Shown: positions 5,859 to 55,895 of the stretch, piece after piece
Position numbering within the stretch: position 1 is the first letter of the stretch
Layout: every line of letters begins with the position of its first letter
Virus record (IMG/VR): IMGVR_UViG_3300025009_000058
Source of the DNA: a virus
Lineage: Duplodnaviria > Heunggongvirae > Uroviricota > Caudoviricetes
Direction: 5' to 3' (one strand)
DNA length: 64,000 nucleotides
Made by a program: the position numbers and the translations under genes
Notes under the pieces: generated by a model
What the model saw: only the letters and a program-made list of their open reading frames with translations
Databases searched by the model: none
What the model was told of the DNA's origin: nothing

Positions 5859-5898
5859 CGGATACGGGCTTCTCATTGATAAAAAAAGTTGTCAATTG

Positions 5899-6137: not shown

Positions 6138-6392
6138 ATGGAAACAATAAAAAAAGAATTTAGAATAGTTACTGCAATTGGAAACAAAATAAGATACTTT
6201 GAATCTAAAGTAACCTATGGGAGATACAAGGGTTGGACTATAGTTTTAAATCTTAATAAAACAGAAGCAACTTTAATTCATCAAAATCAAGTTTTTAGGG
6301 TTCTAATTGATGAGGTTGCAACAGCAAAATTAACATCAGGAAATAAAAGAAATAATAATCAAGACTTAAACAATCACATATTAAGAGGTTAA
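6138..6392 (+). CDS. Hypothetical protein (plus-strand island)
   Basis: 84-aa ORF, the first gene of a short plus-strand island inside the minus-strand arm. Confidence 0.45.
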   Translation: METIKKEFRIVTAIGNKIRYFESKVTYGRYKGWTIVLNLNKTEATLIHQNQVFRVLIDEVATAKLTSGNKRNNNQDLNNHILRG

Positions 6393-6518
6393 AATGAAAA
6401 TAGTTGAAGATAAGCAAGAAAATGGAGTAGGTTTATTTTTAGCAATATTAAGCGGTATTTTTTGGTTATTGGGGTGGGCATGGTATTTAAATAATGAATC
6501 ATTTAATTTTATATTTTA
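6393..6518 (+). CDS. Small membrane peptide (41 aa, single TM)
   Basis: Not in the ORF track (shorter than 60 aa). RBS AAGAGG precedes the ATG at 6393. Translation MKIVEDKQENGVGLFLAILSGIFWLLGWAWYLNNESFNFIF*. Confidence 0.35.
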
Positions 6519-6529
6519 AGGGTAATAGC

Positions 6530-6703
6530 ATGGCAAATCAAATTAATAAAAAGAAAAGTTATGTATCGGCTAATATGGTAAGGCATTCCATAGCTTTAAA
6601 TGAACAAAAAAAACCAAGTCCAATTTTTCAAACTGAGGTTAAATATAATGGTTTGAAACATGACTTAAAAAATGACATTAAACAACAAATTTATAAGTTT
6701 TAG
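6530..6703 (+). CDS. Hypothetical protein
   Basis: The track ORF 6494..6703 is trimmed to the internal Met (MANQINKK..). The RBS is weak. Confidence 0.3.
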   Translation: MANQINKKKSYVSANMVRHSIALNEQKKPSPIFQTEVKYNGLKHDLKNDIKQQIYKF

Positions 6704-6838
6704 ACTTAAGATATAACTTTATAAAAAGCAACTTTATAAAAAAATAACTTGACTTTAGTAAAAAAAGAAATTATTTTTAAACAGCTTAATTAAGGTAATT
6801 AAGCTAAAATAAAAACCAAATCAAATAGGAGTAATATT

Positions 6839-10200: not shown

Positions 10201-10416
10201 TTTTATCAATATTATCAACCATTTTTTAACTTTATTAACATATATAACAGAGCAATCTAAGAGCACACCTCTGCCCCAAAAAGATTATTATAATTATCAG
10301 TTATGCCTGCTTGTCCAGACGTCTGAAAGTTATATAACTTTCTGGGACATTAGTGTATCATCCATATGGGTGAGATAGCTGACATCTTTGCCCAGATGAT
10401 AGCGCGCAATAAAATG

Positions 10417-10728
10417 TTACTGTATGGAGCTTATAATAAAAATATCTTCATTATTTTGAGAGATCCAAACCATTGTTTCATCATCAAATGTGATGTTAAA
10501 ATACTCTTTCAATCCTTCAACTTCTTGTTTGGACATTAGATTATCATAACCAGCATTAATAGATACCATATGTAGAGTTGTATTACCTGGATCATCCGTT
10601 AGCTGTGATAAATCATAATGAGTAAATTTTGCTTTAATATTAGGTTTTATAGTATGATAATATTCTTCAATAGCATCGGAGTAAAGATGTTTTTCTGCAT
10701 TAATTGTAAATGGCATCTGGTACCTCAA
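10417..10728 (-). CDS. Hypothetical protein
   Basis: 103 aa. SD GAGGT lies 8 nt before the ATG. Confidence 0.5.
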   Translation of the reverse strand: MRYQMPFTINAEKHLYSDAIEEYYHTIKPNIKAKFTHYDLSQLTDDPGNTTLHMVSINAGYDNLMSKQEVEGLKEYFNITFDDETMVWISQNNEDIFIISSIQ

Positions 10729-10769: not shown

Positions 10770-12060
10770 TAATCCTATATCATTAATCAGCGAGTCCAGT
10801 GGACGAAGTAAGTCGCAGCTATCATATCTTATATTCTGGGCTTCTTTCCTCAACTTATGTATTATATCCCATAGTTTGTGCCTATTAGCCGGTCAAAGAT
10901 GGAGATCTGGGCTAAGTATTGTATATTGGCAACAATGGTATCTTTTTACCAAGGTTTGCCAACGACTACAAAAGAAAGCCCGACGACTCCAAAGTATGCC
11001 AAGGATACAATTGGAATTTGCAATAGGGGCACATTTGCTATCTGGTGTGGTTATTGAGAGCTGTTCGTTGGATATCCTTGAATAATCTACGGGAGCCATT
11101 TTGGATAGATAAAGTTACTTATATTGAAAAGAAAAACAAACTAGGGGCTCATTGGCTAACCGGCTTGAAGCTGGAACATCGTTTCAAGTTACTGGAACAG
11201 TGGAACATTTTGTTCCATCTATCAATTACAAGATGTTTCAAGTTGCTGGAACATCTATTCCAGCCTAATGGCGGCTGCACGGAACTGACAGGTCGCTTTT
11301 ATTGAATATTAATACATAGTAACATAGCCGGTTAGCCATTTAAAACTGGTTAAGCTTATAGCCATTTTATCCGTCCCAGCCGGTTAAATTTACATTTTTC
11401 CTTTTCTTTTCCATTACATTCATTATCCTACTATTATTCCTATTGTATGTTAAAAGATAGAGTTTTCTTTGAAAAGATATTTTATTTTATCCATTCAATA
11501 CATTACTCTTAGCATATTTTCCTTATATATTTATGTTAATGTATGTATTTGGAATGCTATTGTTTTTAGTTTAAGTCTTATAATGAATAGTATTTATTAT
11601 ATAAAGAATACAACTTATAAGGGCACCAAACTTTTAACGTACACCCCCAAAGTAATGAGTACTATAATATAAATTTGATAGGTGGCGGGTGAGAGGACGG
11701 ACGGAGGCTGTGAAGTGTCCAGATGTGGAGATGATTGTATTTTGGATATTTTGGAAAATTTATTGAATTGGACTATCTGTGTGTGGAGAATGGGATATGG
11801 AGTCAATATTTTGAAAAGAGAGTCAAATGGTATCTGTGGGACCATCCCAAGACCAGATGATCAGAACCGACCAAGATGTCAGGTCTGTGGAATACTGCGT
11901 TGTGAAAGTCAGATTGTCATTTTGGTGATCTTTCTGAATATCGTTCAAATGTTTAGTGAGAAGATCTGTGACCAACGGGGCATTCTTGGAGGATATGATT
12001 CTGGATTGATGAGCTCTCAGTGAAGATGATTTTGATGTAGGCACTATCTGTTTTTTGGTT
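10770..12060. other. GC-elevated, ORF-poor noncoding island with iteron-like repeats
   Basis: No convincing ORF on either strand; track ORFs here carry the DNA repeats. CTGGAACA occurs four times at 11170-11262, with a palindrome tggaacattttgttcca at about 11205. There are repeats of c(c/t)ggtta(a/g)..agccatttt at 11300-11390 and an AT-rich tract at 11400-11680. Confidence 0.5.
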
Positions 12061-28413: not shown

Positions 28414-28998
28414 TTAAGATGTTGCAATTTTATTAGAAAAAGTTTTCTTGTAAAAATCAATGTCAGGAGTAAATAAAAGTTTATTTGACTTCTCTGGTGA
28501 TTTAAGTGCGTTCAATGTTTTAACGCTTGAGAATTGTTTTAACATTCCAAATTGAGCAATCTTAGAAATATAAGTTTGACGTTGCTCAGCTGGGAGGGAA
28601 TCAACATTTACTGATGTTAACTTTCTTATTGACCTAGATGCAGTCTTAGATATCCTCCTGCGTTCTCCATCTGTTAAATCTGATATCTCTGAAGGATTTA
28701 AGCACTTAATACAATCTTGCTTATATAATCGTTTCCATACTAGTCCATTGTTTCTAAGTACATAAGAAATAGCAGACAATAAGAATTGATATCCACTTCT
28801 GCTAGGTCTAGTATCTTTGTTGATTAAGATCATCATCTCTGCATCTGAAATAATGTCTCCTACTTGTTTTGAAGACAATAATGTAATCAACTGAGCAGTA
28901 AATACTGATTTATGTGGAAAATGTCTAATTTCTTGTGTTTCCATATCATAACTCAACTTCTTTATATGATTTAACAAGAAAACGTCCATATTCTCCAC
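28414..28998 (-). CDS. Hypothetical protein
   Basis: 194-aa ORF. Its start may be an internal Met, since the first 53 nt overlap the upstream gene. Confidence 0.5.
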   Translation of the reverse strand: MENMDVFLLNHIKKLSYDMETQEIRHFPHKSVFTAQLITLLSSKQVGDIISDAEMMILINKDTRPSRSGYQFLLSAISYVLRNNGLVWKRLYKQDCIKCLNPSEISDLTDGERRRISKTASRSIRKLTSVNVDSLPAEQRQTYISKIAQFGMLKQFSSVKTLNALKSPEKSNKLLFTPDIDFYKKTFSNKIATS

Positions 28999-29533
28999 CT
29001 TTTCTTGGACGCATAGCCAACAATCCTACAAATTTACCGGCTTTATCAAGATATTCAATAACCTTTTCAGACCTATCAATCAAAATAGGATCAATAATTA
29101 TGATTCTTGCTTTTCCAGTCCATTCTGTAATAACTGGAAATTTCTTCCATACCCTTGAACTTCCGCCCTTTTTACCATCAGAAGGTACAAACATTGGTAG
29201 ATAACTTACTGCACTTTCATCAATACCCAATTGGATATTTTCAGGAATTGATATGCCAGCTTCAAAATGTTTTGTGTAAGTTGCTTTGCCTTTACCAGGA
29301 ACTGATTCTGATAAAAATCTTGCACATTCAACTAAAGTGTTACTAAGTGCTCTACCAGGAATGTAAACTTCTTTAGTTGTTGGATCAAAATGAAGTCTTT
29401 CTTTCCAAGTCTTGTCTTCAAATTTTTCATGAGCATCTCCAGCTTCTTTTTTGGAGATAATAGGCTTATTATACAAAATTGGACTTGCGCTTGTTAATTC
29501 AACTTCAAAGCATTTGATTGTTTCTTTTTTCAT
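28946..29533 (-). CDS. Hypothetical protein
   Basis: Trimmed to the internal Met (MKKETIKCFEV..), which leaves the motif at 29561-29582 28 nt upstream. Confidence 0.5.
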   Translation of the reverse strand: MKKETIKCFEVELTSASPILYNKPIISKKEAGDAHEKFEDKTWKERLHFDPTTKEVYIPGRALSNTLVECARFLSESVPGKGKATYTKHFEAGISIPENIQLGIDESAVSYLPMFVPSDGKKGGSSRVWKKFPVITEWTGKARIIIIDPILIDRSEKVIEYLDKAGKFVGLLAMRPRKGGEYGRFLVKSYKEVEL

Positions 29534-29560
29534 CTTTATACCCTTTTTAATTGTTTTTAA

Positions 29561-29582
29561 TTGATAAAAACAAATATAAGGC
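29561..29582 (-). promoter_or_regulatory. Promoter-like motif, type 2 (ttgataaaaacaaatataaggc)
   Basis: Upstream of 28946..29533. Confidence 0.5.
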
Positions 29583-29665
29583 TTCACTCATATTAAACCT
29601 CATAAATTTAATATGGCGAAGCCTTTGGATTAAGAAGGAAAAGAGTGCTTTCTCAAAAAACCTTC

Positions 29666-30858: not shown

Positions 30859-31146
30859 TCAAATAAATGCTATATCTTTGCATTGAACTGTAATATCTAT
30901 TTTATGGGTAAAAGACCAAACAAGAACAGATTTATTACTAAATCTATCATCAATAATGACAGGATTACAAATTGTTATACTACCTTTAGGTAATATATTG
31001 CCCATTTTGGTTTTTATTCTTTTTTTCACTTGGATTAAAACATAATTATCAAAATGTCCTTTATATTGAGGATAAGTCATTACTTGCTCGTAAGCATTCT
31101 GTCTTAATTTTAAAACTATTAGAGCATCAGCCATTTTAGACCTCAA
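30859..31146 (-). CDS. Hypothetical protein
   Basis: 95-aa ORF. Confidence 0.45.
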   Translation of the reverse strand: MRSKMADALIVLKLRQNAYEQVMTYPQYKGHFDNYVLIQVKKRIKTKMGNILPKGSITICNPVIIDDRFSNKSVLVWSFTHKIDITVQCKDIAFI

Positions 31147-31148
31147 GA

Positions 31149-31364
31149 TTATTTTTCTTTTTTCATAATGAAAGAATCACAATATGTCTGTTTGTGTTTA
31201 TTAGTACTTTTTAAATTAAAGCATTCTCTATACACATAACATGAATTAATAGATTTCCTATAAACAATCTCTAAAGTTTTGTTATCACTACCAAAACCTA
31301 TTGAAATTAGAACCTTTGCATTGATTAATTTTTCATTAGTTACAATCTGTATTTTATTAGCCAT
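31149..31364 (-). CDS. Hypothetical protein
   Basis: 71-aa ORF. Confidence 0.4.
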   Translation of the reverse strand: MANKIQIVTNEKLINAKVLISIGFGSDNKTLEIVYRKSINSCYVYRECFNLKSTNKHKQTYCDSFIMKKEK

Positions 31365-31382
31365 GTAAATCCTTTTTATTTG

Positions 31383-31456
31383 CGGAGGCGTTAGGACTCG
31401 AACCTAAATCCCATATCATTTCTGATACGATAATTACCATTATTACAACATCTCCG
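31383..31456 (-). tRNA. tRNA-like element, possibly a tRNA pseudogene or a noncanonical tRNA
   Basis: The minus-strand sequence folds with a canonical T-arm (TTAGG-TTCGAGT-CCTAA). It has a 7-8 bp acceptor stem (GGAGATG / CGCCTCC with one A-C mismatch), a D-arm with GG in the loop and a total length of 73 nt. The anticodon arm is TATC-AGAAAT-GATA, a 6-nt loop that lacks U33. No tRNA search program could be run. Confidence 0.4.
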
Positions 31457-31498
31457 TAATCAAAGTACGTTTTTAATTCCTTTGATTGCTAGCCTATT

Positions 31499-32446
31499 TT
31501 ATTGATTAGGACCTAACAATGAGCCTGTTTGTACGGGTATTGGCCCATAATGATTTGCTGGGACATATCTTCCATCCCATCTTTTAATTTCTTCATATTT
31601 ATTTTGTAGCCGGATTTTTTCCAATTCATATTGCATAAATGAAGCAGTCAATATGTAGTACTTTTGTAGGCCTTCTCCTTCTTTGAACTTAGCCTTAGCA
31701 TTGATTTCTGCCGCAGCGAGATTTCCTTCCGCAATTAATACTTTCGCTGTCTTTTGAGCCTCTGCCTGTTTTACTTGCTTTTGAGCTTCTTGTTCTGCAA
31801 TCAATAATTCTTGTTGTTTTACTTTCACTTGTTGAGCTTCAGCCATAGTTCGTTCAATTTGCTTCTCAAATTGTTCTGACCAGTCGTAGTTAATGATTTT
31901 GAAATTATCTACCAAGACAGGATAGATTTTTAATTCCTGCTTTATAAGAGCTTCGACTTGACCAGCAATCATTTGCTGATTAGCTGCGACATCAAATATA
32001 GTATATTTACCAATAACTTGCTTAAATGCGGATTGAAGAGTTCGATAAACAATGCTCTTCATCTTGTCAACGCCCACTTTTTGCCACAGATAATGCAGTT
32101 TGTATTCATTGTTAGATATAAATAGTTTAGTACTCGCACCGACTGTTTGGTTATCTTTTGTAATAGCGCCTTCCGGACCTACAAGAACATCAACTTCTAT
32201 TTCTTCAGGCCGCACAGACAAAACTTCAACCGATTGAAAGAATGGCATAGTAAATTGAACGCCAGGATTAAGTGTACTTTGTTCAAGTTTACCCATGTTA
32301 AAACGCAAACCTCGAGAACCTTCTGGTATGATTGTAATAACCATCCAGAGAACGATTAAGATACCAAAGATACCTAAACCGATTTTCAATCCTTTGCTTG
32401 ATTTCAAAGTATTGAGTAATTGTTGCATTGGTGATTCGTAAGCCAT
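31499..32446 (-). CDS. SPFH / Band-7 (prohibitin/HflK-like) membrane protein
   Basis: 315 aa. It has an N-terminal TM segment (IGLGIFGILIVLWMVITII), an SPFH-like core (..VDVLVGPEGAITKDNQTV..) and a long Ala/Gln/Glu/Lys coiled-coil. Confidence 0.55.
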   Translation of the reverse strand: MAYESPMQQLLNTLKSSKGLKIGLGIFGILIVLWMVITIIPEGSRGLRFNMGKLEQSTLNPGVQFTMPFFQSVEVLSVRPEEIEVDVLVGPEGAITKDNQTVGASTKLFISNNEYKLHYLWQKVGVDKMKSIVYRTLQSAFKQVIGKYTIFDVAANQQMIAGQVEALIKQELKIYPVLVDNFKIINYDWSEQFEKQIERTMAEAQQVKVKQQELLIAEQEAQKQVKQAEAQKTAKVLIAEGNLAAAEINAKAKFKEGEGLQKYYILTASFMQYELEKIRLQNKYEEIKRWDGRYVPANHYGPIPVQTGSLLGPNQ

Positions 32447-32628: not shown

Positions 32629-33534
32629 CTATTTTTTATTTAATTTACTGAAAGGTGAGGAAATGCCTAGTAATTTCAACTTAGATTCAAACTCATCTAA
32701 TTCTCTTGAAACCTTAATATAAGAATTATCAACATACGACAACCAACCAAATTCTGTGGCCAATTCAAAAATATCTTTTGGAGTATATTTCTCAGCAATG
32801 ATCATTTGTATTAAGTTATAGTCTTTCTGGAAAAGTTTTAAAGAATATAACTCATACTCTTCAAATGCAGACCATGATATTGGGAACTCTTCTTTAACAA
32901 ATTCTGCAATAGCCAAAGCATACTGATGGATCTCATATTGTGCATGCGAGTCCAATCGAAGTCTTAAAAAGTTAAATAAGTTATGCAAATCAATCTTCCA
33001 ATAAGCTTCTGTATAAGTTGATAATGGAAGATCTTTTCTTGCTTGTTCTTTTGCAACTCCAGCTTCAATTCGTTCATTATATATTCTTGTAGCGATAGCT
33101 TGAAAATTTTTCTCATCTTTTGAAAGATTATGGGCTAATATAGGGTTTATATCTTCAAGTTTTCCAGCAGAACCTTGTTTATTGTCTTGAGCTTGTACTC
33201 TCCACTGATTTTGTGCAGTTTCTTGTTTCTCATCAATTGCTAATGAATATCTGGTTGAATATTCATTTACATTTGCAGTTCTATGTCTAATCCATTGACG
33301 CCAACAATCCATAGGAACTTTAACATGAAATTTCATTTCAACCATTTCAAATGGTGATGTGTGCCCATGTCTATAAAGATATTTTATTAAACCTTTGTCT
33401 TCAGAGACTTTTTTAGTACCAGCACCATATGAAACTCTTGCTGCTTGAACAATTGAGTCATCAGAGCCCATTACATCAACAAGGCGTACAAATCCCTTAT
33501 CTAAAACATTAATTTTTCTACTCCACTGTTCCAT
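32629..33534 (-). CDS. thyX: Flavin-dependent thymidylate synthase ThyX
   Basis: The ThyX signature RHRTANVNEYSTRY (RHR-x7-S) is present, along with HGHTSPFEMV and an N-terminal VLDKGFVRLVDVMGSD. Confidence 0.85.
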   Translation of the reverse strand: MEQWSRKINVLDKGFVRLVDVMGSDDSIVQAARVSYGAGTKKVSEDKGLIKYLYRHGHTSPFEMVEMKFHVKVPMDCWRQWIRHRTANVNEYSTRYSLAIDEKQETAQNQWRVQAQDNKQGSAGKLEDINPILAHNLSKDEKNFQAIATRIYNERIEAGVAKEQARKDLPLSTYTEAYWKIDLHNLFNFLRLRLDSHAQYEIHQYALAIAEFVKEEFPISWSAFEEYELYSLKLFQKDYNLIQMIIAEKYTPKDIFELATEFGWLSYVDNSYIKVSRELDEFESKLKLLGISSPFSKLNKK

Positions 33535-33815
33535 TATTTTTTTCCTTTAAATATTAATATGGTATTATCGATGATTAACAATAAACCCCAGAGGATAAAC
33601 ATAGAACCAAAAGAATAAGCAATAATATCAGTAGGCCATTCACTGACAGGTTTTAAACTAAATAAGTTTATTACTATCTGTAAGCCAATTGAAAAAATAA
33701 ATACACCAAGAGAAATGAGAAATATACCTGACATAATTGATGATTTCACTATTACCTCTTTTAATAATAAAAAATAATGGCCGGTATTGCTACCAGCCAT
33801 AAATGAATAATGCAA
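33534..33815 (-). CDS. Small two-TM membrane protein
   Basis: 93 aa with two hydrophobic helices. Confidence 0.45.
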   Translation of the reverse strand: MHYSFMAGSNTGHYFLLLKEVIVKSSIMSGIFLISLGVFIFSIGLQIVINLFSLKPVSEWPTDIIAYSFGSMFILWGLLLIIDNTILIFKGKK

Positions 33816-33920
33816 AAAGAATCACGTGTTTGTCTTGGAGTCCGTTATGTAAGCGGTTTTAAAGACGTTTAGAGTGACACTACGTGTTCATCACTTTTGA
33901 CCAATTCGAATTGGTCAAAC

Positions 33921-34688
33921 TTAAAATATATTACGATCTATCATATATGATCTATAAGCATGTAAACTATTAATAAGAACAATAAGTTTACCGGGTTCAA
34001 TTGGCACTCCATCAACTAGTTGATCATTAATTCTTTTAGTTACCCAATCATTTAATTTTCCAGCAAGGTACATGTCATTGATAAAATGCGTGTAAAAATC
34101 ACAACTCCTCATGTGATAAAACATAATCAATTTATTATCACGAATCAACCAAGAATAATCTAAAGAACAAGAAACCCGTCCAGTTTGTTCATTCATGTCT
34201 TGGTCAAGATCACTTGAATAGATATTTAATACTTGACGTCTTGAATTCCTATCTAATACAAGTTGATTAATAATACGAAGCAGAAGATTATTACGGAAGA
34301 AGCGCTCATTGTAAGTATATTCAAAACGACCATTAACCATAATTGGTTCCCAAACATACCGACGTAATTTCCAAGCTTCACCAGGATTGGGACTAATAGC
34401 TGATTCATCTACTCTTTCAAGAAACTCAACATTGGCCCATGCAAGAACGTTATCTGGTTGTTCTATTGAATCTTTATAGATAAAAGCATAAGCCTTTTTA
34501 ACTTCAGCTAATGGGTCTAGTATTGAGAATGTTTCTCCTTGAATTTCTTTAGTAGTATACTTCTCAACAAGTTCAGGTGTGTCAAGTTTTTTGTTCTGAA
34601 ATGACTTAAGTCTAACCTCTTGACCCATTTCGAATAAGTTTCTTTGTGTTTCTTTCACTGTCTCGTAAAGATTTTTGTAAATCCTCAT
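33921..34688 (-). CDS. T4 gp42-like deoxycytidylate 5-hydroxymethylase (ThyA-family)
   Basis: 255 aa. The C-terminal half aligns to ThyA/dCMP-hydroxymethylase motifs: SRRQVLNIYS, the catalytic Cys in RVSCSLDYSWLIRD, MRSCDF, FINDMY (Asp at the ThyA Asn177 / T4 gp42 Asp179 position) and GKLIVLINSLHAY. The alignment to T4 gp42 is from memory. Confidence 0.6.
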   Translation of the reverse strand: MRIYKNLYETVKETQRNLFEMGQEVRLKSFQNKKLDTPELVEKYTTKEIQGETFSILDPLAEVKKAYAFIYKDSIEQPDNVLAWANVEFLERVDESAISPNPGEAWKLRRYVWEPIMVNGRFEYTYNERFFRNNLLLRIINQLVLDRNSRRQVLNIYSSDLDQDMNEQTGRVSCSLDYSWLIRDNKLIMFYHMRSCDFYTHFINDMYLAGKLNDWVTKRINDQLVDGVPIEPGKLIVLINSLHAYRSYMIDRNIF

Positions 34689-41042: not shown

Positions 41043-41144
41043 ATCAATTATTTATTTTTATTCAACAAATATAATTCATCATTAATACAGAAATGCCAGA
41101 AAATAAATTCTGGCATTTCTAGACTAAGAATATTTAGAAGAATA

Positions 41145-41402
41145 TTAAGCTTGAGGTGCAGATGCAATTGTTTCGCGTTTCTCTCTTAAAGCAGCTCTAA
41201 GTTCCTTCATGAATTTGGTCATTGCAGAACTGCCAGTATTTACTCTTTTGCCTGGAGCTTTCATACCCTTATCAAAAAAGCGAATAATATCTGTTTTCAA
41301 CTGTTCAGTAATTTCATCTAATTTACCACAAAGCAATTCACCTTGTGTTGGATCTACTACTGCAGTTTCTGTTGCAACGGATTCTGTTTTTACTTCTGCC
41401 AT
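41145..41402 (-). CDS. Small basic protein (paralogous 5' UTR to 36497..36943)
   Basis: 85 aa with RBS AAGGAG. It is the first gene of the minus-strand arm. Confidence 0.5.
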   Translation of the reverse strand: MAEVKTESVATETAVVDPTQGELLCGKLDEITEQLKTDIIRFFDKGMKAPGKRVNTGSSAMTKFMKELRAALREKRETIASAPQA

Positions 41403-41440
41403 TTGTTTGGCTCCTTTTAGTGGTTGAAATTAATTTATTA

Positions 41441-41464
41441 TTTGAGACAACAAATATATTACAT
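41441..41464 (-). promoter_or_regulatory. Promoter-like motif copy (ttgagacaacaaatatattacatc)
   Basis: 39 nt upstream of the 41402 start. Confidence 0.45.
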
Positions 41465-41698
41465 CTTTTATTTTTTGATGTGAAAAATTTTTAGAACCAT
41501 ACTTTATTGATAAAATATAAAATGTATCTTATTAGTGAAATAATTGATAATCAAAATATTCTAATAAATAAACTTCTTTCCAATGCGCTCGCCCGTAGTT
41601 GCTTTTATATTTTATATCAGAATGTTAATAATATAAATGTTAAGATCTTGTTTACCATAATTTAATTCAAATTTAATTTAAAAACACCCGTTGAACCG

Positions 41699-41728
41699 TT
41701 GACTTCATTAGTGAATATGTCATATAAC
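41699..41728 (+). promoter_or_regulatory. Candidate host sigma-70-type promoter (TTGACT-N18-TATAAC)
   Basis: Lies in the divergent intergenic region. It is bracketed by the 8-bp inverted repeat ttgaaccg (41691) / cggttcaa (41766) and the palindrome gtcaaaag..cttgtgtgttttgac. Confidence 0.35.
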
Positions 41729-41950
41729 AAGTCAAAAGTAACTTGTGTGTTTTGACTTTTTCTGGCGGTTCAAAAATCAATCTGTAAAAAGTTTAAAACT
41801 CTCAATTTGAAGAACACCGAGTTCGAAAATCCTAATATATTATATATAAATAAGGTTAATAATTTAAAACTAAAATAAGTTAAATAGCTTTTTAGTTAAA
41901 TATATTGGAATTTTCCGCAACTCTGAGTATACTTTATTTTATTGAGATTA

Positions 41951-42175
41951 TTAGCCACCAATCTTAAGTAGCTTTCCATCAGATTCAAGATAATTTTCAT
42001 AGTAGATATCAATTATTTCACTGGGAGAATCCTTTACATATATCATCAATCCTACAACTCCGGAGTTTTTATTGATATAACCTCTACCCTCTAATTGGAG
42101 TTCGCCTAAAGCAATTTTTTCTATAAGTTGCTCAACAGGGGTATTGGACGTTATTTTAATCTCTTTCTCATCCAT
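41951..42175 (-). CDS. Hypothetical protein
   Basis: 74-aa ORF in the divergent region. Confidence 0.35.
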   Translation of the reverse strand: MDEKEIKITSNTPVEQLIEKIALGELQLEGRGYINKNSGVVGLMIYVKDSPSEIIDIYYENYLESDGKLLKIGG

Positions 42176-42411
42176 TAATTAACCTTATCTCTTTTATAGT
42201 TTTCAATCATATTTGATAGTGTTTCTATACAATCTGTAAAATTATCTTCATTCTCCTGAGATTTTAACCATAAGTTAAATTCTGGATCATTTAGTAGTGA
42301 AACTAATTCTTCAAACAATATCTTATATTCTTCTGGATTCAATTAATTTCGCACCAATGGAGTAACTGATTGTTTAATTTTGTCACATCAATTTTGGAGT
42401 AAATTTTCAAT

Positions 42412-49423: not shown

Positions 49424-49645
49424 ATGTTAAGAACTGTCAAAAGATTTATGTATGGTGGAAGTTCAGGAATTTGTGGAAAGGTATCTAATGAAGAATTTTG
49501 CAGTAGTATGAAAACAGATTATATGTATGAATTAAGTTGTGGACATACATATGTAGAATCATTTAAAGGTAAAGAAGGAAAAATTCTTGATAATGATTCA
49601 TTAGTCTTATGTGAAAAATGTGATAAATTACCAAACCAGGAGTAG
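49424..49645 (+). CDS. Small Cys-rich protein
   Basis: 73 aa, C..C...C.H.....C.KC. Confidence 0.4.
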   Translation: MLRTVKRFMYGGSSGICGKVSNEEFCSSMKTDYMYELSCGHTYVESFKGKEGKILDNDSLVLCEKCDKLPNQE

Positions 49646-49649
49646 TAAA

Positions 49650-50300
49650 ATGAACGTATATGATTTTCCAGATCAATTTAATGAAGAACACTTATCAAAG
49701 ATATATGAACTTATTTTTGATAGACAAGAGCAATTAGCTCAAAAATATACACCTCTTGAACACCAGAATGGCTTAAGATGGACTCAAGATATGCCAGTCA
49801 ATATTCATGATGGAAAAGGCCAAGCACAATTGAAAGATATGGCTTGGAGAACAATGGAGGAGATTGGAGAATCACTTGAAGCATGGTTTGATGATAGTGA
49901 GAATGTTGAAACTCAAAATGAGCAACTTTTACATGCAAAAGAAGAACTTGCAGATGGCTTACATTTCTTAACAGAATTGGGTATACTTTCAGGTATAAAA
50001 CATACTGATATTAATATTTCACTTGAAAAAGTAGTACATCAAGCTAAAGAGGTTGTAAGTATTGATGAAGCTGTTACTGATTTTGTTTTGAGACTTGGTA
50101 TTACAATGAATTGTTTGAAGAATAAACCTTGGAAATGCTCTCAATATCCAACAGATGAAGCAAAATTCAAGAAACACTATTTATTAGCATATGAGGCTTA
50201 TATTGTTCTTATGCTTGAAATAATGGAACCACTTGAAATTCTTAATCTTTACTTTAGAAAATCAAACGTAAACCAGTTTAGAATTGAATCTAAATATTAG
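49650..50300 (+). CDS. MazG-like / all-alpha NTP pyrophosphohydrolase (dCTPase/dUTPase candidate)
   Basis: Two EExxE-type motifs (MEEIGESLEAW and EELADGLHFL). The start is placed at MNVYDF after RBS AGGAG. Confidence 0.5.
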   Translation: MNVYDFPDQFNEEHLSKIYELIFDRQEQLAQKYTPLEHQNGLRWTQDMPVNIHDGKGQAQLKDMAWRTMEEIGESLEAWFDDSENVETQNEQLLHAKEELADGLHFLTELGILSGIKHTDINISLEKVVHQAKEVVSIDEAVTDFVLRLGITMNCLKNKPWKCSQYPTDEAKFKKHYLLAYEAYIVLMLEIMEPLEILNLYFRKSNVNQFRIESKY

Positions 50301-50309
50301 GAGGTTGTT

Positions 50310-50555
50310 TTGGAAAGAGATGCTATACTTTTGAAATTTAAGAGTATCTTAGAGAATAAGTTGGGTGTTCATTTTTCTGAAATTACAGAAAGCTCACACT
50401 TAATAAATGATTTAGGTGCTGATTCACTAGATGTTATAGAAATTCTAATGGAGTGTGAATCACTTTTTGATATTTCTATACCAGAGGGGGATGTTGAAAA
50501 TCTTTTCACTGTAAAAGAATTAGTTGATTATGGTTATGGGAGGTTAAGTGGCTGA
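50310..50555 (+). CDS. Acyl carrier protein
   Basis: 81 aa. The phosphopantetheine site LGADSLDVIEILMECE (DSL motif) lies in a four-helix ACP-like sequence. Confidence 0.6.
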   Translation: MERDAILLKFKSILENKLGVHFSEITESSHLINDLGADSLDVIEILMECESLFDISIPEGDVENLFTVKELVDYGYGRLSG

Positions 50556-50781
50556 TTTTTGTAAACAATGTCATGATAAATTATTTAAACCTCTTGAGGA
50601 TTCAACTAAGTATGATTTTTATGGTTTAAGCACTCCTGAAGATGATAAAAATGAATTATATCCAGTTGTATTATGCGAAGGTTGTAAAATACAAGGTGGA
50701 TACATACAAGTTAACTCAAAAGGTGAATGCATAAGTCCAGATTGTGGCTCTCATGGAGGAAAGATTTATCCAATAACATAA
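50548..50781 (+). CDS. Zinc-ribbon protein
   Basis: 77 aa, CKQCH...CEGCK...CISPDCGSHGG. Confidence 0.45.
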   Translation: MADFCKQCHDKLFKPLEDSTKYDFYGLSTPEDDKNELYPVVLCEGCKIQGGYIQVNSKGECISPDCGSHGGKIYPIT

Positions 50782-50852
50782 GGAGATCTTATGACTTAAA
50801 AACTATCTATAATCGAAATGTATAGATAGATTGGTAGAGTTATTTTTTGCAC

Positions 50853-50874
50853 AGGCCCTCTAAGTTGAGGGCCT
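50853..50874 (+). terminator. GC-clamped hairpin (aggccctc-taagtt-gagggcct), putative terminator or processing site
   Basis: 8-bp GC-rich stem after 50548..50781. It lacks a U-tract and is similar in style to the hairpins at 28.1-28.3 kb. Confidence 0.35.
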
Positions 50875-50894
50875 AAATTATAAAGGAGTTTAAA

Positions 50895-51155
50895 ATGGCA
50901 AGAACAGCAGTTGACCAATATGAAAGCATGATCACAGTTATTTTTCAACAAAAAGGTGTACAGAGACAAGAATTTTCTCAATCGATGGCTATTTCAATCC
51001 CATCAACTGTTTTTATTGATTTAAGCAAATTAAAAGCAAGACTAGAAGAAGTAACTATTAATCTTATTGATGAGTACAAAAATACCGGATCTTTTCCAGA
51101 ATTAGCAATTATAGATCCATCATTAGATGAACAACCAAAAGATATAACATCATGA
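50895..51155 (+). CDS. Hypothetical protein
   Basis: 86-aa ORF with RBS AAAGGAG. Confidence 0.45.
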   Translation: MARTAVDQYESMITVIFQQKGVQRQEFSQSMAISIPSTVFIDLSKLKARLEEVTINLIDEYKNTGSFPELAIIDPSLDEQPKDITS

Positions 51156-51409
51156 TAAATATGTCTGAAGGAATCTATAAACGATTTATAGACAAGCAAG
51201 TTATAGTCTCAAATAATGTTACTGCAGGTTTTTACTTCTTTGAAGATACAAATACTATTATTATGAATAATAAATCATTTGTATCAATGCTATTTAGAAG
51301 TTTAGAATTTAATAAAGCTTTAGAAACTTATTCAAGTTATTATATCAATAAATTGATGACAAAAGCAGATATACTTTTTTCACGGAAGTTTCCACATGAG
51401 GTTTTATAA
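51152..51409 (+). CDS. Hypothetical protein
   Basis: 85-aa ORF. Confidence 0.4.
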   Translation: MINMSEGIYKRFIDKQVIVSNNVTAGFYFFEDTNTIIMNNKSFVSMLFRSLEFNKALETYSSYYINKLMTKADILFSRKFPHEVL

Positions 51410-51462
51410 TTTATTAAATTGCATCAATTTATTTGATTAAGAATTAAAACTCAAGAGAAAAA

Positions 51463-52356
51463 ATGACATCAGATAATTTTCAAGAAATTTATATAAAGAT
51501 TCTTCAAAAAACTTTAGACGAAGGTATTTTGTGGGCAAAAGCTAAGACAATTACTCCAATTAGTTTTACAATTACAAATCCTGTTTTATCATTAATTAAC
51601 CATAAGAAAAACTGGTCATGGGCTTTTGTTGAACTAGCAAACAGGTTGGCTTTTGAGGAAAAGGAAATGCAAAATCCTGGATCAGCATGGACTTTTAGAC
51701 CTGCTTGGAAAAGAAAACTTGAAAAAGAAAATGGAGAATTTCATTATAGTTATGGTGAGGAATATACAATACAAATTCCACACATCTTAAAAAAATTAAA
51801 ACTTTCAGCAGATCGAGAAGCTATTTTAACAATGTGGAAACCTGAGTATCTTTACATAAAAGAAATGGATAGAAGGCCTTGTACATTAAATATTCACTTC
51901 TTCAAAATTCAGAATAAGTTACATTGTTCTGTATATATGCGTACTGTTGATATAATGAATCTATTACCATATGATGTTTTTCATCACACAATGCTACAAA
52001 GATATTTAGCCTCTGTATTAGGAATTGAATTAGGAAATTTTAACTTTAATGCTTCATTTGGGTACTATCAAAAGAAAAGAGATGTTACAGGTAGTGTGCA
52101 AAATACTCTAAATGCATTATCAAAAACCTCTTCCCTTGATTATTGTGATGATTGGAGATTTGGTGAGAAAGAAAGATTAGAAATAACTAATATAGCTTTT
52201 AGACTTGATAGAGGTGAAGGCTTTTTTTACTATCATAATCATGAACTCAGTTCCTTTGGTCAACAATATGCAAATGCTCTCATATATATTTATCAGAAAA
52301 ATGCTTTATTAAAAGGGTCTGAAATTATAAATGAATTTAAAATTCTTTTACTCTAA
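51463..52356 (+). CDS. ThyA-family pyrimidine C5 hydroxymethylase/methylase with Asp at the Asn177-equivalent (predicted dCMP-specific)
   Basis: 297 aa. The catalytic RPCTLNIHFF (PC) is present. MRTVDIMNLLPYDVFHH aligns to ThyA QRSCDVFLGLPFNIASY with D replacing N177, as in T4 dCMP hydroxymethylase Asp179. Confidence 0.6.
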   Translation: MTSDNFQEIYIKILQKTLDEGILWAKAKTITPISFTITNPVLSLINHKKNWSWAFVELANRLAFEEKEMQNPGSAWTFRPAWKRKLEKENGEFHYSYGEEYTIQIPHILKKLKLSADREAILTMWKPEYLYIKEMDRRPCTLNIHFFKIQNKLHCSVYMRTVDIMNLLPYDVFHHTMLQRYLASVLGIELGNFNFNASFGYYQKKRDVTGSVQNTLNALSKTSSLDYCDDWRFGEKERLEITNIAFRLDRGEGFFYYHNHELSSFGQQYANALIYIYQKNALLKGSEIINEFKILLL

Positions 52357-52360
52357 CAAA

Positions 52361-52381
52361 GCTGAATTATATTTGTTTTGT
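52361..52381 (+). promoter_or_regulatory. Plus-orientation copy of the conserved promoter-like motif (gaattatatttgttttgtaaa)
   Basis: Reverse complement of the minus-arm consensus. It lies 20 nt upstream of the dNMP kinase start. Confidence 0.5.
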
Positions 52382-52401
52382 AAAATTAAGGGATTAATTA
52401 C

Positions 52402-52908
52402 ATGATTTATATCTTTGAAGGCTCAGATTTATCAGGAAAAACAACGTTAGCTGAAGCCTTTTCAAAAAAGAATAACATTCCACTCATTAAAAAACGTTTT
52501 GATGTATTGGGGATGTCAAAAGAATTCTTACTTACAAATTTAATTGAAGAATTACAAAAATTCTTTTGGCTTACTATATGGCCAATAAGAGAACTTATTA
52601 ATGTGGCAGTTGATAGGTCATTACTTTCATCACTTGTTTATGGTACTTTCTTTGAAAGAGAATATGATAAAACATATATAATGGAAGCTTTAAAAGATCC
52701 ATTTGTAAAAGTTTTCTTTGTATATGCTGATTCAAACTCTATTGAGAGAAGAAAACTTGTCAGAACAGAAAAACTTTTCAGTTTAGATGAAATATTAAAA
52801 ATTCAAACCATGTATTTTGAAGTAGTTAAAGTACTTGAAAATGAGGGTATTAAGATTATTTCAATAAATAATTCAGATAATTCAAATATAGAAATACCGA
52901 GTATATAA
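52402..52908 (+). CDS. Thymidylate-kinase-family dNMP kinase
   Basis: The P-loop MIYIFEGSDLSGKTTLAEAF resembles Tmk IVIEGLEGAGKTT. The DRY-like DRSLLSSLVYG is also present. Confidence 0.6.
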   Translation: MIYIFEGSDLSGKTTLAEAFSKKNNIPLIKKRFDVLGMSKEFLLTNLIEELQKFFWLTIWPIRELINVAVDRSLLSSLVYGTFFEREYDKTYIMEALKDPFVKVFFVYADSNSIERRKLVRTEKLFSLDEILKIQTMYFEVVKVLENEGIKIISINNSDNSNIEIPSI

Positions 52909-53552
52909 TGCAAACTTTTTTATTGTCTGATAAAGAATTTGCTGAAACTATCTATTTCAAAGACTTATGTAAAGGCTTAGAATTTCTTGATAATAAGCGT
53001 TTAAATAAACAAATTCTTGAAGCATACCAAATCTTACAAATTTTAATAAAAGGAACTGGTAGATATTTGAGTCATCCTGTGGTTCAAATGTGGATGAGCT
53101 CAGAGAATCTTTTAGCAAGATATGGTTTTGAATGTTGTAAAGCTTTTCAATCAAAAAGTGCTATAAAGACTATACATAAGTATATGAGCTTCTTTGAAGA
53201 ATATTGTTATACAGCACGACATGCTTATTTTAAAGAACCCTTTTGGTTAGAAAATCAGAATTTTTTACATGAATTAGTAAAGTCTCATAAATCTAATCTT
53301 CAATATAAAGACTCAAGTTATTATCAATTTAATGATATTGACTCAAATCTTTTATATGTTTGGCCTTCATATTATGTATTTGATAAAAATAATGGATTTA
53401 GAATCTCTTATGAAGGTAAAGAAGCTTTACTAAAAACATGTAAAAGGAAAGCAATCAAAGAAGATATTTATCAATCTGAAATATTAAACTCATTCATGTA
53501 TTATGATGGAAATAAATGGGTAAGAGCACTTCATTTAATGGAGAAACAATGA
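52908..53552 (+). CDS. Hypothetical protein
   Basis: 214-aa ORF in the nucleotide-modification cluster. Confidence 0.5.
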   Translation: MQTFLLSDKEFAETIYFKDLCKGLEFLDNKRLNKQILEAYQILQILIKGTGRYLSHPVVQMWMSSENLLARYGFECCKAFQSKSAIKTIHKYMSFFEEYCYTARHAYFKEPFWLENQNFLHELVKSHKSNLQYKDSSYYQFNDIDSNLLYVWPSYYVFDKNNGFRISYEGKEALLKTCKRKAIKEDIYQSEILNSFMYYDGNKWVRALHLMEKQ

Positions 53553-54538
53553 AATTTTCTGTTGGTGGTTTTCAATGCGGCATAGGTAATTTATTAGGCT
53601 TCCAATTAGAAGGTTATAATGTGCTTTTTAATGTGGATAATAGAGAGTTTATACATAAAGGTAAGGTAGCTTTTTATGATAATTTCCCTAATATAAGTAT
53701 TAGTAATGATTTTGATGATGGATTAGTAAATTATCCTACTCCAACAGTTTTAATATCATCTCCATCCTGTAGTCAAATTTCTGCATTAGGAGTGAAAAGA
53801 AAGGATCGTTCAAGTTTAAAGACTCTTGGCATTAAAGATTTTGAATTTTATCATGCTCTAGTAAAATTACTTTATACAAATGCTCCATATATTGTTATGG
53901 AATATTTACCTTCTCTCCTTAGGTTTTTTGAAGTAAGGCATAATGAACTTTATTGTATATCAACAAAAGAATCATTCTCATATCCAGATCATTATCGTGT
54001 TCAAATTGTTAATGTTGATTCACAAATATATGGAACGCCACAGTCTAGAAAACGTTTATTTATTTTCTTTTCGCTAAAGAATTTAGATTTTATGTATCTT
54101 AAACCTTCTACAATGCTCGCTGGTAAAAAAGCTGGAGAAGTTTTAATTGTATTAGATCTTTTAAGAAAAGATAGAAAATTATATGATGATGAACATCCTA
54201 ATCATTCTGAAGAAAGAAAACAAGGTTTTAATAAGCTCTTACCAGGTGATAGTTTTTATGGAACTCAAAATAATAAAAGATTAGATCCTGAAAAGATTTG
54301 CCCAGTTATTGCATCATCAAAAACTCAATATGTACATCCTTGGCATGATAGAGTACTTACACCAAGAGAAGCGGCTACATTTCAAGGATTCCCATTAGAT
54401 TTTCAATTTGGGCATATAAGTTTTTCAACAAAGCTGGATTTAATTGGTAGAAGTATACCAGTACAAGTTGCTGCTCATATAGCAAGTGAGATTAAATACA
54501 ATTATGAAAGAAATATTGATTTAGGAGTTATAGGATGA
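53549..54538 (+). CDS. DNA C5-cytosine methyltransferase-fold protein, paralog 1
   Basis: Motif I FQCGIGNLLGF, motif IV SSPSCSQISALG (PC), motif VI MEYLPS (ENV-like), motif VIII QSRKRLF and the C-terminal LTPREAATFQGFPLDFQF are present. Confidence 0.6.
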   Translation: MKFSVGGFQCGIGNLLGFQLEGYNVLFNVDNREFIHKGKVAFYDNFPNISISNDFDDGLVNYPTPTVLISSPSCSQISALGVKRKDRSSLKTLGIKDFEFYHALVKLLYTNAPYIVMEYLPSLLRFFEVRHNELYCISTKESFSYPDHYRVQIVNVDSQIYGTPQSRKRLFIFFSLKNLDFMYLKPSTMLAGKKAGEVLIVLDLLRKDRKLYDDEHPNHSEERKQGFNKLLPGDSFYGTQNNKRLDPEKICPVIASSKTQYVHPWHDRVLTPREAATFQGFPLDFQFGHISFSTKLDLIGRSIPVQVAAHIASEIKYNYERNIDLGVIG

Positions 54539-54849
54539 GTAATTTTCAATCGATACTAATAACAATTAATGGTTCTAGAATTAAAGAGATGGCTTCTAGA
54601 AAAATGGTATTATTACAAACTGTTGCAGCTAAATTAGCTGAACAAATGGAAGATTTAAGAAGAGGCCATCTTAATGCAGACGATCGTCAACTTATTAAAG
54701 AAAAGAAAGATTTTGAGTTATTGAAAATAGATGACTCTGTTAACTTCTGTCAAGTTTTAATAGATTTTATTCCAAATGAAAAGGAATATGAATTAAGTGC
54801 GAGAGAATTAAATTTCTTACGTAATGATAAGATAATTTCTTATGAATGA
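54535..54849 (+). CDS. Hypothetical protein
   Basis: 104-aa ORF. Confidence 0.4.
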   Translation: MSNFQSILITINGSRIKEMASRKMVLLQTVAAKLAEQMEDLRRGHLNADDRQLIKEKKDFELLKIDDSVNFCQVLIDFIPNEKEYELSARELNFLRNDKIISYE

Positions 54850-55606
54850 AATCCTAGTAAATCAAGTTTATCAATGTGATAATCTATACTTACTCAAAGA
54901 ATTACCAAGTAAGTGTATAGATTTGATATATGGGGATGTGTTATTTGGTACTGGAAAAGATTTTAAGGAGTTTAAAGATTTAAAACCTGTGAGATTAGAC
55001 ATATTGGAATTCTATACTCCAAGATTAATAGAAATGCATAGGGTTCTTAAACCAACTGGTTTATTATACTTTCATTGTGATTCAATCATTTCCCATTGGA
55101 TAAGAATACTTATTGATGGTATTTTTGGTGATCATAATTTCAGAAATGAAATAATATGGTACTATAATTCTGCACCTCGTAAGAAAAAAGATTTTGGAAA
55201 AAGACATGATACTATATTAAGATATACAAAAACTGAGAACTATTATTTCAACCCAGATTCTAAATATGTAAGACAACCATATTCAGAAACTGCACCAAGA
55301 GGTTATGATAAAGAAAAATATTATGATCAAAGAGGTAAAATATTAGACGATGTATGGACCATTTCAATTCTAGGTCAAAATGATAAAACAGAGAGAACTG
55401 GTTACCCTACTCAAAAGCCAAAATCTTTATTATATCCAATTATAGACTCAAGTTGTCCAAGTGATGGAGTATTCTTTGATCCTTTTGTTGGTTCAGGAAC
55501 TTCTGTTGTTGTTGCAAAAGAATTAAATATAGATTTCATTGGGTGTGACATAAATCATAATGCTATTTCTTATACTATAGAGAGGTTAAAGAATGTTAAT
55601 TGCTGA
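54842..55606 (+). CDS. Beta-class N6A/N4C DNA methyltransferase-like protein with a degenerate DPPY motif
   Basis: The C-terminal YPTQKPKSLL...FFDPFVGSGTSVVVA is present. The N-terminal IDLIYGDVLFG aligns to VDLIFADPPYN, so the catalytic Pro-Pro-Tyr is replaced by Val-Leu-Phe. Confidence 0.6.
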   Translation: MNEILVNQVYQCDNLYLLKELPSKCIDLIYGDVLFGTGKDFKEFKDLKPVRLDILEFYTPRLIEMHRVLKPTGLLYFHCDSIISHWIRILIDGIFGDHNFRNEIIWYYNSAPRKKKDFGKRHDTILRYTKTENYYFNPDSKYVRQPYSETAPRGYDKEKYYDQRGKILDDVWTISILGQNDKTERTGYPTQKPKSLLYPIIDSSCPSDGVFFDPFVGSGTSVVVAKELNIDFIGCDINHNAISYTIERLKNVNC

Positions 55607-55895
55607 CATAATTAAATTAGCGGAATCAGATTTTTCAGAGTGTTTGGAAACATTAAGAAAAAAGGGGAATGACTATGCTGCAGAGATTGATGGTCTTTCT
55701 AATTTTAAATATTCCGGTGATTTTGCTGGAGTTACACAAGAGCAATCTTGTAAAGTACTAATTGGTACTAAGCTTGCAAGATTAAGAGAATTAACTAATA
55801 ATCCAAACAAAGTTGTTGCAAATGAATCAGTAAATGATACTATCAAAGATTTAATAAATTATTTAATCTTATGGAAAAGTATTAGAAATGAGTAA
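55593..55895 (+). CDS. Hypothetical protein
   Basis: 100-aa ORF. Confidence 0.4.
   Translation: MLIADIIKLAESDFSECLETLRKKGNDYAAEIDGLSNFKYSGDFAGVTQEQSCKVLIGTKLARLRELTNNPNKVVANESVNDTIKDLINYLILWKSIRNE

Follow-up and report, generated by a model that had tools for sequence, protein, structure and literature searches.

A tRNA-derived element with a predicted closed anticodon arm in an AT-rich bacteriophage genome

Several RNAs have the shape of a transfer RNA (tRNA) without taking part in decoding. The mascRNA of MALAT1, the MEN-beta tRNA-like RNA and the vtRNAs of murine gammaherpesvirus-68 are of this kind, and all of them are excised by tRNA-processing enzymes. In bacteria, tRNA genes are also integration sites, since phages often integrate into their 3' halves. 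In addition, phage-encoded tRNAs have been described as a means of evading anticodon nucleases: mycobacteriophage tRNAs act against VapC and PrrC, the tRNA-Lys of phage T5 against PARIS, and its tRNA-Tyr against retron effectors (PMC10264068, PMC11464382, PMC11555353). Our literature search on phage anticodon-less tRNA mimics and phage tRNA pseudogenes returned nothing specific. Here, we describe a tRNA-like element found in the IMG/VR record IMGVR_UViG_3300025009_000058, of which a stretch of 64,000 nucleotides (nt), hereafter the window, was analyzed. The element is best read as a non-decoding tRNA-derived gene and, on balance, it is most likely the degenerating relic of a tRNA that was carried as cargo.

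Fold, anticodon arm and detection

The element spans positions 31383..31455, and it lies, as do all its parts given below, on the minus strand. Read from 31455 to 31383, its sequence is GGAGAUG-UU-GUAAU-AAUGGUA-AUUAU-CGUAUCA-GAAA-UGAUAUG-GGAU-UUAGG-UUCGAGU-CCUAA-CGCCUCC-G; CCA is not encoded, and the 3' trailer is CAAAUAAAAAGG. The minimum free energy (MFE) fold was a cloverleaf of -21.7 kcal/mol (z=-2.76 against shuffled sequences), and the Rfam tRNA model also covered the whole gene. The 5' strand of the acceptor stem, GGAGAUG (31449..31455), begins with GG and was assigned from the sequence and the ARAGORN drawing, while the 3' strand, CGCCUCC (31384..31390), was assigned from the sequence, the Rfam alignment and ARAGORN. 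Together they give seven pairs, including an A5.C68 mismatch, which received a 'v' mark in the Rfam alignment, and a U6.G67 wobble. The discriminator is G73 (31383), and the C at 31456 opposite to it offers a potential eighth pair. The D-arm, GUAAU-AAUGGUA-AUUAU (31430..31446), has up to 5 base pairs (bp) and a 7-nt loop, with A14, A15, G18, G19 and A21 in place. Its junction is irregular, showing either a 3-nt connector at positions 8-9, in the register of ARAGORN and Rfam, or else no unpaired position 26. The variable region GGAU (31408..31411) was read from the sequence and from ARAGORN, and under the standard tRNA architecture its U48 can make a Levitt pair with A15. The T-arm, UUAGG-UUCGAGU-CCUAA (31391..31407), has five Watson-Crick pairs and a consensus T-loop. 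Hence, the 7-bp acceptor, the D-arm with G18 G19 and the T-arm with a GTTCRA T-loop that make up a canonical cloverleaf were all found. The original prediction was accurate on these points: the sequence, ARAGORN and the MFE structure agree on the 73-nt minus-strand cloverleaf that it proposed, its textbook T-arm (TTAGG-TTCGAGT-CCTAA) is read directly in the sequence, the D-loop contains the expected GG, and the 7-8 bp acceptor corresponds to the seven pairs, one mismatched and one wobble, plus the possible C31456-G73 pair.

The anticodon arm (CGUAUCA-GAAA-UGAUAUG, 31412..31429) was defined from the MFE structure and the pair probabilities. The strands CGUAUC and GAUAUG form 6 bp, the outer loop bases A and U add a seventh pair, and in the MFE structure this 7-bp helix is capped by a GAAA tetraloop of the GNRA type (31419..31422). 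In the partition function, the seven arm pairs had probabilities of 0.93-0.999. The same arm can alternatively be drawn with a 6-nt loop, AGAAAU, or with an 8-nt loop, CAGAAAUG. When the isolated arm was evaluated, the closed form had an energy of -5.3 kcal/mol, the 6-nt loop -3.7 and the 8-nt loop drawn by ARAGORN +0.1, so that ~5.4 kcal/mol would be needed to open the closed hairpin that far. None of the three forms has U33 or a purine after a plausible anticodon, and a canonical 7-nt anticodon loop with U33 and purine 37 was not found. Among 135 reference tRNAs with 7-nt loops, taken from the loci fetched for comparison (L-numbers below), U33 was present in 131 and purine 37 in 133, and none had A32:U38. 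The original prediction had drawn the arm as TATC-AGAAAT-GATA; its 6-nt loop without U33 stands, but the stem is longer than proposed, with 6 bp, or 7 when it is closed by the GAAA tetraloop. In physical length, the closed arm is close to a normal anticodon arm, and the RNA, as modeled, presents no anticodon in the standard manner.

ARAGORN reported the element as tRNA-?(Phe|Phe)(gaaa), i.e., tRNA-???, with a score of 101.2, and this was its sole tRNA call in the 64-kb window. A failure of the tRNA predictors to find anything, which had been named beforehand as an outcome speaking against the prediction, was thus not observed. The score was low, below the 5th percentile (102.4) of the 133 normal tRNA calls made in the fetched loci, whose range was 100.3-125. 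With the Rfam model RF00005, a permissive scan of 651 nt gave 28.1 bits (E=0.0011), short of the gathering score of 29 that a canonical tRNA should reach; the alignment ran from end to end, and the anticodon loop was treated as an insert. Across the whole 64-kb window, Rfam gave 0 matches at the gathering threshold. This also covered the transfer-messenger RNA (tmRNA) and the other tRNA mimics of Rfam release 15, and ARAGORN found no tmRNA either. When 31100..31750 was scanned with E<=10, tRNA was the only credible Rfam match.

To put a rate on such calls, the window was shuffled 100 times with dinucleotide composition preserved (6.4 Mb), and two ARAGORN calls of at least 101 were obtained, scoring 101-104, i.e., ~0.02 per window. 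The element occupies most of a 134-nt gap between genes (31365..31498) on the coding strand, and only ~7% of the window positions could contain a 74-nt element wholly between genes. Moreover, when IMG/VR and JGI metagenomes were searched with a pattern that combined the D-loop TAATGGTAA with the T-arm GGTTCGAGTCCTAA, 20 loci were obtained, namely 19 ordinary tRNAs and one other call with a 6-nt loop. The rarity in shuffled sequence, the intergenic placement on the coding strand and the retrieval of genuine tRNAs by this pattern indicate that the element is tRNA-derived. It is not an assembly error, since it was identical in two independent assemblies, one from ENA (L001) and one from JGI made from another sample (L048, a 122,452-bp contig), which matched the window without differences over 12.9 and 8.7 kb, respectively.

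Probable origin and fate of the element

The true relatives of the phage were defined by its DNA ligase: four loci (L023-L026) have 13-20 collinear genes in common with the window. In these, ARAGORN found no tRNA, and there was no weak Rfam tRNA match. The last conserved collinear gene upstream of the element in these relatives is a thymidylate-synthase-like gene (33921..34688, minus strand; Pfam and PHROG matches), with tblastn identities of 50% in L024 and 45% in L025, and it marks the edge of a variable region. Beyond it, both L024 and L025 lack ThyX, SPFH and the element. As ThyX, SPFH and the tRNA are all missing from the true relatives, the element, on this comparison, is part of a lineage-specific insertion in the variable region. 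It was restricted to one clonal phage lineage, the only known copies being identical, and the neighboring proteins were all singletons in 90% clusters. Besides being absent from the four relatives, the element had no homologue in IMG/VR, JGI metagenomes or GTDB. GenBank phages contained no close DNA relative over 5 kb around it, and blastn with 101 nt returned only generic T-arm matches to tRNA-Asn genes, nothing of which was decisive on ancestry. The T-arm with the 3' part of the acceptor had no exact match in IMG/VR, and a fixed-loop pattern (D-loop..GAAAT..T-loop), confirmed to match the window itself, had 0 matches in IMG/VR and JGI metagenomes. A lone IMG/VR match to ATCAGAAATGAT..GGTTCGANTCC (L017) was rejected as chance, with no Rfam tRNA match and a fold z of 0.06.

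The gene directly upstream (31499..32446, minus strand) encodes an SPFH/Band-7, prohibitin-like protein (Pfam PF01145, 7e-24), and its stop codon lies 43 nt from the element. Directly downstream, the start codon ATG of a 71-aa ORFan (31149..31364, minus strand; no family match) lies 18 nt past the element and is preceded by AAAGGA. ThyX (Pfam PF02511, 2e-52) is encoded at 32629..33534 on the same strand. Neither SPFH nor ThyX was useful as a synteny anchor. From the 16 loci fetched with SPFH, L002-L016 had only the SPFH gene in common with the window and are therefore not relatives of the phage, and the nearest ThyX homologues were in cellular contigs, beside GroES/EL and RelA. From these comparisons, SPFH/Band-7 is apparently a mobile cargo gene found in many unrelated phages (regions noted include L003 838..3405 and L006 8429..8659, as well as L008 and L016), and it is often flanked by tRNAs, which were found near it in L002, L006, L008, L010, L012 and L016. 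In L002, tRNA-Arg(UCG) (1898..1970) precedes SPFH and tRNA-Arg(GCG) (3109..3184) directly follows it, the latter at the position that the element has here. An RNA ligase and a PNKP-type kinase/phosphatase, the T4-style tRNA-repair pair, were seen beside SPFH in L002-L005. A tRNA-repair context for the element was considered and discarded, as these two genes are absent from the window.

The possible ancestor of the anticodon loop was sought by inserting single bases. Among 28 such insertions, the best was the one restoring U at position 33 (AUGAAAU), which gave a tRNA-Phe(GAA) with a score of 108.7, within the normal ARAGORN range. G-A-A-A was found at positions 34-37 in two of four real phage tRNA-Phe genes; since GAAA is already there in half of them, a tetraloop formed after the loss of U33 would need no special selection. 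Loops of 6 or 8 nt are not exceptional by themselves and are one of the known ways in which tRNA genes break: they were present in 4 of the 137 distinct tRNA calls of the fetched loci, ~3% in what is a biased sample. The loops were CUUCGA in L018, AUUGUA in L029, UCGCAUAU in L039 and UUAAAU in L044. The call in L018 (2720..2793; score 116.7) is a cellular tRNA, one base short of an Arg(UCG) loop, that stands beside tRNA-Ile and tRNA-Leu in a neighborhood with GroES/EL, RelA and ParB. No such ARAGORN call was made in the fetched parts of its sisters L019 and L020, which cover less of the sequence upstream of tRNA-Ile. The one in L044 (6486..6557, minus strand; score 100.6) is a lone 6-nt-loop element in a 25% GC region of an unrelated viral contig, with the same D-loop and T-arm as the element studied here; that phage shares no genes with the window. 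Those in L029 (5841..5915) and L039 (963..1038, minus strand) are further viral tRNA-type genes with odd loops. Thus, odd-loop tRNA genes are a regular minority, and the element is unusual only in its closure by a tetraloop.

The reading that we favor, decay of a cargo tRNA, would proceed as follows. The tRNA would have been brought into the phage lineage along with accessory genes, SPFH (and ThyX); given that tRNAs often flank SPFH in unrelated phages, it could have travelled with this cargo, and such an origin is plausible from the loci compared. No sigma-70-like promoter or intrinsic terminator was found in the 134-nt gap, so co-transcription is the default assumption, and the element would be transcribed with SPFH and the downstream open reading frames (ORFs). 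RNase P, 3'-end processing and the CCA-adding enzyme recognize only the acceptor/T-arm half of a tRNA. As this half suffices for processing, the element is probably still excised as an RNA of ~73 nt, and this excision would incidentally sever SPFH from the 71-aa ORF in the messenger RNA (mRNA). With its anticodon loop closed, the RNA would pair with no codon, and most synthetases would be expected not to recognize it. The element has neither G3:U70 (Ala) nor G-1 (His) nor a long variable arm (Ser, Leu, Tyr), so that under known identity rules the anticodon-independent synthetases are unlikely to charge it. Unstable tRNAs and tRNA-like RNAs that begin with GG and have a weakened acceptor stem are, as a rule, given a CCACCA tag by the CCA-adding enzyme and thereby marked for decay (PMC4307339), and because the element combines both features, its product may be short-lived.

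Pooled, the independent defects are the 6-nt loop, the missing U33, A32, A5.C68 and the irregular 8-9/26 junction. A degenerate phage tRNA was among the explanations first offered for the element, and it is the one that fared best: the genome is that of a bacteriophage, the element scores at or under the limit of both detectors, and it is absent from the true relatives. As it stands, it matters little, being one more substandard phage tRNA gene, and such genes account for a few per cent of phage tRNA calls. The locus tags VI815_02575..02595 and the protein accessions are consecutive, which suggests that the NCBI pipeline annotated no RNA gene here; annotation pipelines rightly omit such genes.

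Several observations weigh against simple decay. The D, T and anticodon stem pairs are all standard and the tertiary-contact bases are kept, and the GC content is 40% in the element, compared with 28% in the flanking gap and 29.5% in the genome. Such a well-kept body with raised GC is more than would be expected of a pseudogene in a 29.5% GC genome. The AUGAAAU ancestor would have had A32:U38, which occurred in 0 of the 135 reference loops. Outside the anticodon arm, the body is nearer to phage tRNA-Gln(UUG), which has G73, than to tRNA-Phe: tRNA-Gln accounted for 15 of the 20 pattern matches and for 10 of the top 15 body matches, and the best body match (L032) agreed at 42 of 55 positions, or at 19 of 32 outside the bases forced by the pattern. 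Because of A32:U38, G73 and the Gln-like body, a history of one deletion is not clean; either more than one change accumulated, or else the arm was remodeled. The arm may thus have been remodeled rather than merely damaged, which would fit retained function better. Lastly, as the copies of this clonal lineage show 0 mismatches over 8.7-12.9 kb, this comparison has no power to test for relaxed constraint.

These points lead to the strongest rival, which we regard as doubtful but worth serious consideration: that the element is a functional, anticodon-less, tRNA-shaped RNA. It could serve as RNase P/RNase Z punctuation between SPFH and the downstream ORFs, or as a decoy or sponge with an uncleavable loop, the proposed targets being host proteins that bind tRNA, such as tRNA-targeting defense nucleases, modification enzymes or the CCA-adding enzyme. 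The intact cloverleaf and tertiary contacts and the GC content of 40% against 28-29.5% speak for it, as does an arm that is a perfect 7-bp helix with GAAA at about the normal arm length; the combination of a Gln-type body with an arm unlike the Gln arm suggests remodeling. The element also stands in an operon-like array without its own promoter or terminator, where tRNA-type processing would cleave the mRNA, and phage tRNAs are known to counter tRNA-cleaving defenses (PMC10264068, PMC11464382, PMC11555353). On the other hand, it is not conserved in the four true relatives and had no homologue in the collections searched, the window contains no RNA ligase or PNKP, and none of ~50 ORFs scanned had a Pfam match to a tRNA-related enzyme. 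The acceptor mismatch and the GG start predict instability, the known anti-defense tRNAs of phages decode and carry point changes instead of being anticodon-less mimics, and the other odd-loop tRNAs form no tetraloops, which means that no recurring class was seen. A more specific form of this idea, in which a Gln-type body had its arm rebuilt as a sealed 7-bp GNRA hairpin to act as an uncleavable decoy for host defense nucleases or tRNA-binding enzymes, or as an RNase P-dependent switch uncoupling SPFH from downstream gene expression, is rather unlikely. If true, bacterial viruses would have their own version of the non-decoding tRNA-like RNAs known from herpesviruses and of mascRNA, and the element would be a new type of RNA tool in the conflict between phage and host over tRNAs.

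It is improbable that the element is a working decoder, either a tRNA-Phe(GAA)-like molecule reading UUY or a quadruplet tRNA whose GAAA reads UUUC with a +1 frameshift. The ARAGORN model does have an 8-nt loop with gaaa and the assignment Phe|Phe, and decoding by expanded 8-nt loops is known from both natural and engineered systems (PMC9094753, PMC8481270). We also found three same-strand pairs of +1-overlapping ORFs with an in-frame UUU_C, e.g., 28946..29587 and 28414..28998. However, the 8-nt loop, C-A-GAAA-U-G, has A at position 33 and U instead of a purine after the anticodon, whereas U33 and a purine at 37 occur in 97-99% of the references, and the closed hairpin is favored over this form by 5.4 kcal/mol. 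A quadruplet decoder would be expected to hold its 8-nt loop open and to have U33, a 4-base anticodon and a purine 3' of it, a combination that was not found. A73 is an identity element for phenylalanyl-tRNA synthetase. The G73 of the element is not the Phe discriminator, and the absence of the element from the relatives also weighs against decoding. In all three pairs, the downstream ORF has a start of its own, and TTTC occurs >500 times per strand; the UUU_C overlaps are consistent with chance in AT-rich DNA and provide no evidence for quadruplet decoding. Nor does the gaaa reported by ARAGORN provide any, as the loop is predicted to be closed, and the element may be useful as a calibration case in which a 4-base anticodon in the ARAGORN output is not evidence of such decoding.

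An att-site remnant or tRNA 3'-end mimic, produced by integration into a host tRNA gene or by recombination with it, is very improbable. The acceptor strands are imperfectly complementary, as is possible in a hybrid, but a full cloverleaf is present and not the 3' half alone. In GTDB (185,579 species representatives), there were 0 matches to either the 23-nt exact pattern or a 21-nt pattern with three positions relaxed, these being exact-pattern tests only. Within the window, the 3' half was found only once, and no att-like repeat flanks the element. The remark in the original prediction that no integrase is visible in the window holds, for none was found among the ~50 window ORFs scanned, with ~58 kb of the phage lying outside the window; the gene content, which is that of a large, lytic-type phage equipped for its own replication, argues in the same direction. 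With a whole cloverleaf, no matching host tRNA 3' end, no repeat and no integrase found, this part of the earlier proposal is not supported.

Hardly more credible is a chance cloverleaf in AT-rich DNA that is not derived from a tRNA: the ARAGORN score lies at the noise level given by the shuffle calls (101-104) and the Rfam score is below gathering, but the rate of ~0.02 calls per window has to be multiplied by a further ~3.5-7% for wholly intergenic placement on the coding strand, and a perfect GGTTCGAGTCC T-loop box together with the TAATGGTAA D-loop belongs elsewhere to genuine tRNAs, mainly tRNA-Gln, in 19 of 20 cases, the remaining one being the 6-nt-loop call. The suppressor-type tRNA that had also been suggested is not supported, as the loop contains none of the stop-complementary CUA, UCA and UUA, U33 and a 3' purine are missing, the 8-nt form has the energy cost given above, and the ORFs of the window are dense and uninterrupted in the standard code (code 11).

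Wider genomic setting

The window has 29.5% GC, is ~89% coding and consists of two divergent blocks of tightly packed genes. It is part of a ~122-kb AT-rich genome which, judged by its genes, is that of an uncultivated bacteriophage. The replication and lysis genes include DnaB, DnaG primase, a sigma-70-like protein, a superfamily-2 helicase, a Pol I-type 5'-3' exonuclease, an ATP-dependent DNA ligase and an SLT transglycosylase, a make-up that points to a large phage of lytic type, equipped for its own replication. The NCBI proteins HLD98179-HLD98197 (locus tags VI815_02555-02645) are filed in a metagenome-assembled genome labeled 'Candidatus Nanoarchaeia archaeon'. An archaeal virus was considered and rejected, as the replication and lysis genes are of bacterial type, and the label is probably best explained by mis-binning of a bacteriophage. 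The closest ThyX homologues came from Ignavibacteriota and Bacteroidota, which is a possible pointer to the host. Among the ~50 window ORFs scanned, no Pfam match to a tRNA-related enzyme was obtained, in keeping with the absence of RNA ligase and PNKP.

The modification genes comprise ThyX, several thymidylate-synthase-like genes, a dUTPase, three DNA methyltransferases and methyltransferase/glycosyltransferase proteins. Genes for pyrimidine metabolism and DNA modification are dense at 32629..34688, 49611..57203 and 57215..61203. Three thymidylate-synthase-like paralogues were noted (33921..34688, 51463..52356 and the ThyX neighbor), along with dUTPase_2, a thymidylate-kinase-like gene, two C5 and one N6/N4 DNA methyltransferases, a pyrimidine-dimer glycosylase-like protein and two large methyltransferase/glycosyltransferase proteins. 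This gene set suggests that the phage DNA is hypermodified and possibly glycosylated.

Between the divergent blocks, a 1.37-kb, mostly non-coding region (41043..42411) lies at the minimum of the cumulative GC skew and is probably an origin or early-promoter region. The ORF at 41145..41402 (minus strand) matches Hc1 histone-like proteins of L023-L026, and the one at 41951..42175 (minus strand) is conserved too. Strand switches recur in the first 12 kb, where there are gaps of 350-725 nt (5390..5966, 6114..6838, 11086..11614 and 10267..10617); neither Rfam at the gathering threshold nor ARAGORN found anything in these gaps. The relatives carry two insertions of selfish elements that the window lacks, both with faint Pfam matches: an intein-like segment in DnaB of L025 (1906..3636; 576 aa compared with 449 aa) and a LAGLIDADG-like ORF after the ligase in L023 (11620..12270).

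Comparison with known systems

The attP/attB cores of temperate phages that use tRNA genes also contain the T-arm and the 3' half of the acceptor. The element differs from them in being full-length, and no matching host tRNA, repeat or integrase was found. With the sufD-type and engineered quadruplet tRNAs it has in common that ARAGORN can draw it with an 8-nt loop and GAAA. Those tRNAs, however, keep U33, a 3' purine and an open loop, whereas the element has A33 and a 3' U, and two extra pairs are predicted to close its loop.

The tRNAs that phages use against anticodon nucleases are nearer, as the element is also a phage tRNA-type gene with a loop that departs from the host norm, and a sealed loop would be uncleavable. 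Unlike the element, they decode, have 7-nt loops with point substitutions and refill the cleaved pool, while the element cannot replace any tRNA.

In its predicted fold, tRNA-like without a functional anticodon, the element has the property that characterizes mascRNA and the vtRNAs. Like these and the MEN-beta RNA, it is tRNA-shaped, has no usable anticodon and is, by prediction, embedded in a longer transcript, and its acceptor/T-arm half would be expected to support RNase P/Z-type processing and the addition of CCA or CCACCA. Those RNAs are eukaryotic or herpesviral and conserved, and their processing has been shown experimentally, whereas the element is not conserved.

The closest likeness is to degenerate or pseudo phage tRNAs, with which it shares a good T-arm and D-loop, an anticodon loop that is not of 7 nt and a low detector score. 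It differs from them in that it is the sole tRNA-type gene in 64 kb and not the member of a cluster, and in that only the element closes fully to a GNRA tetraloop on a 7-bp helix.

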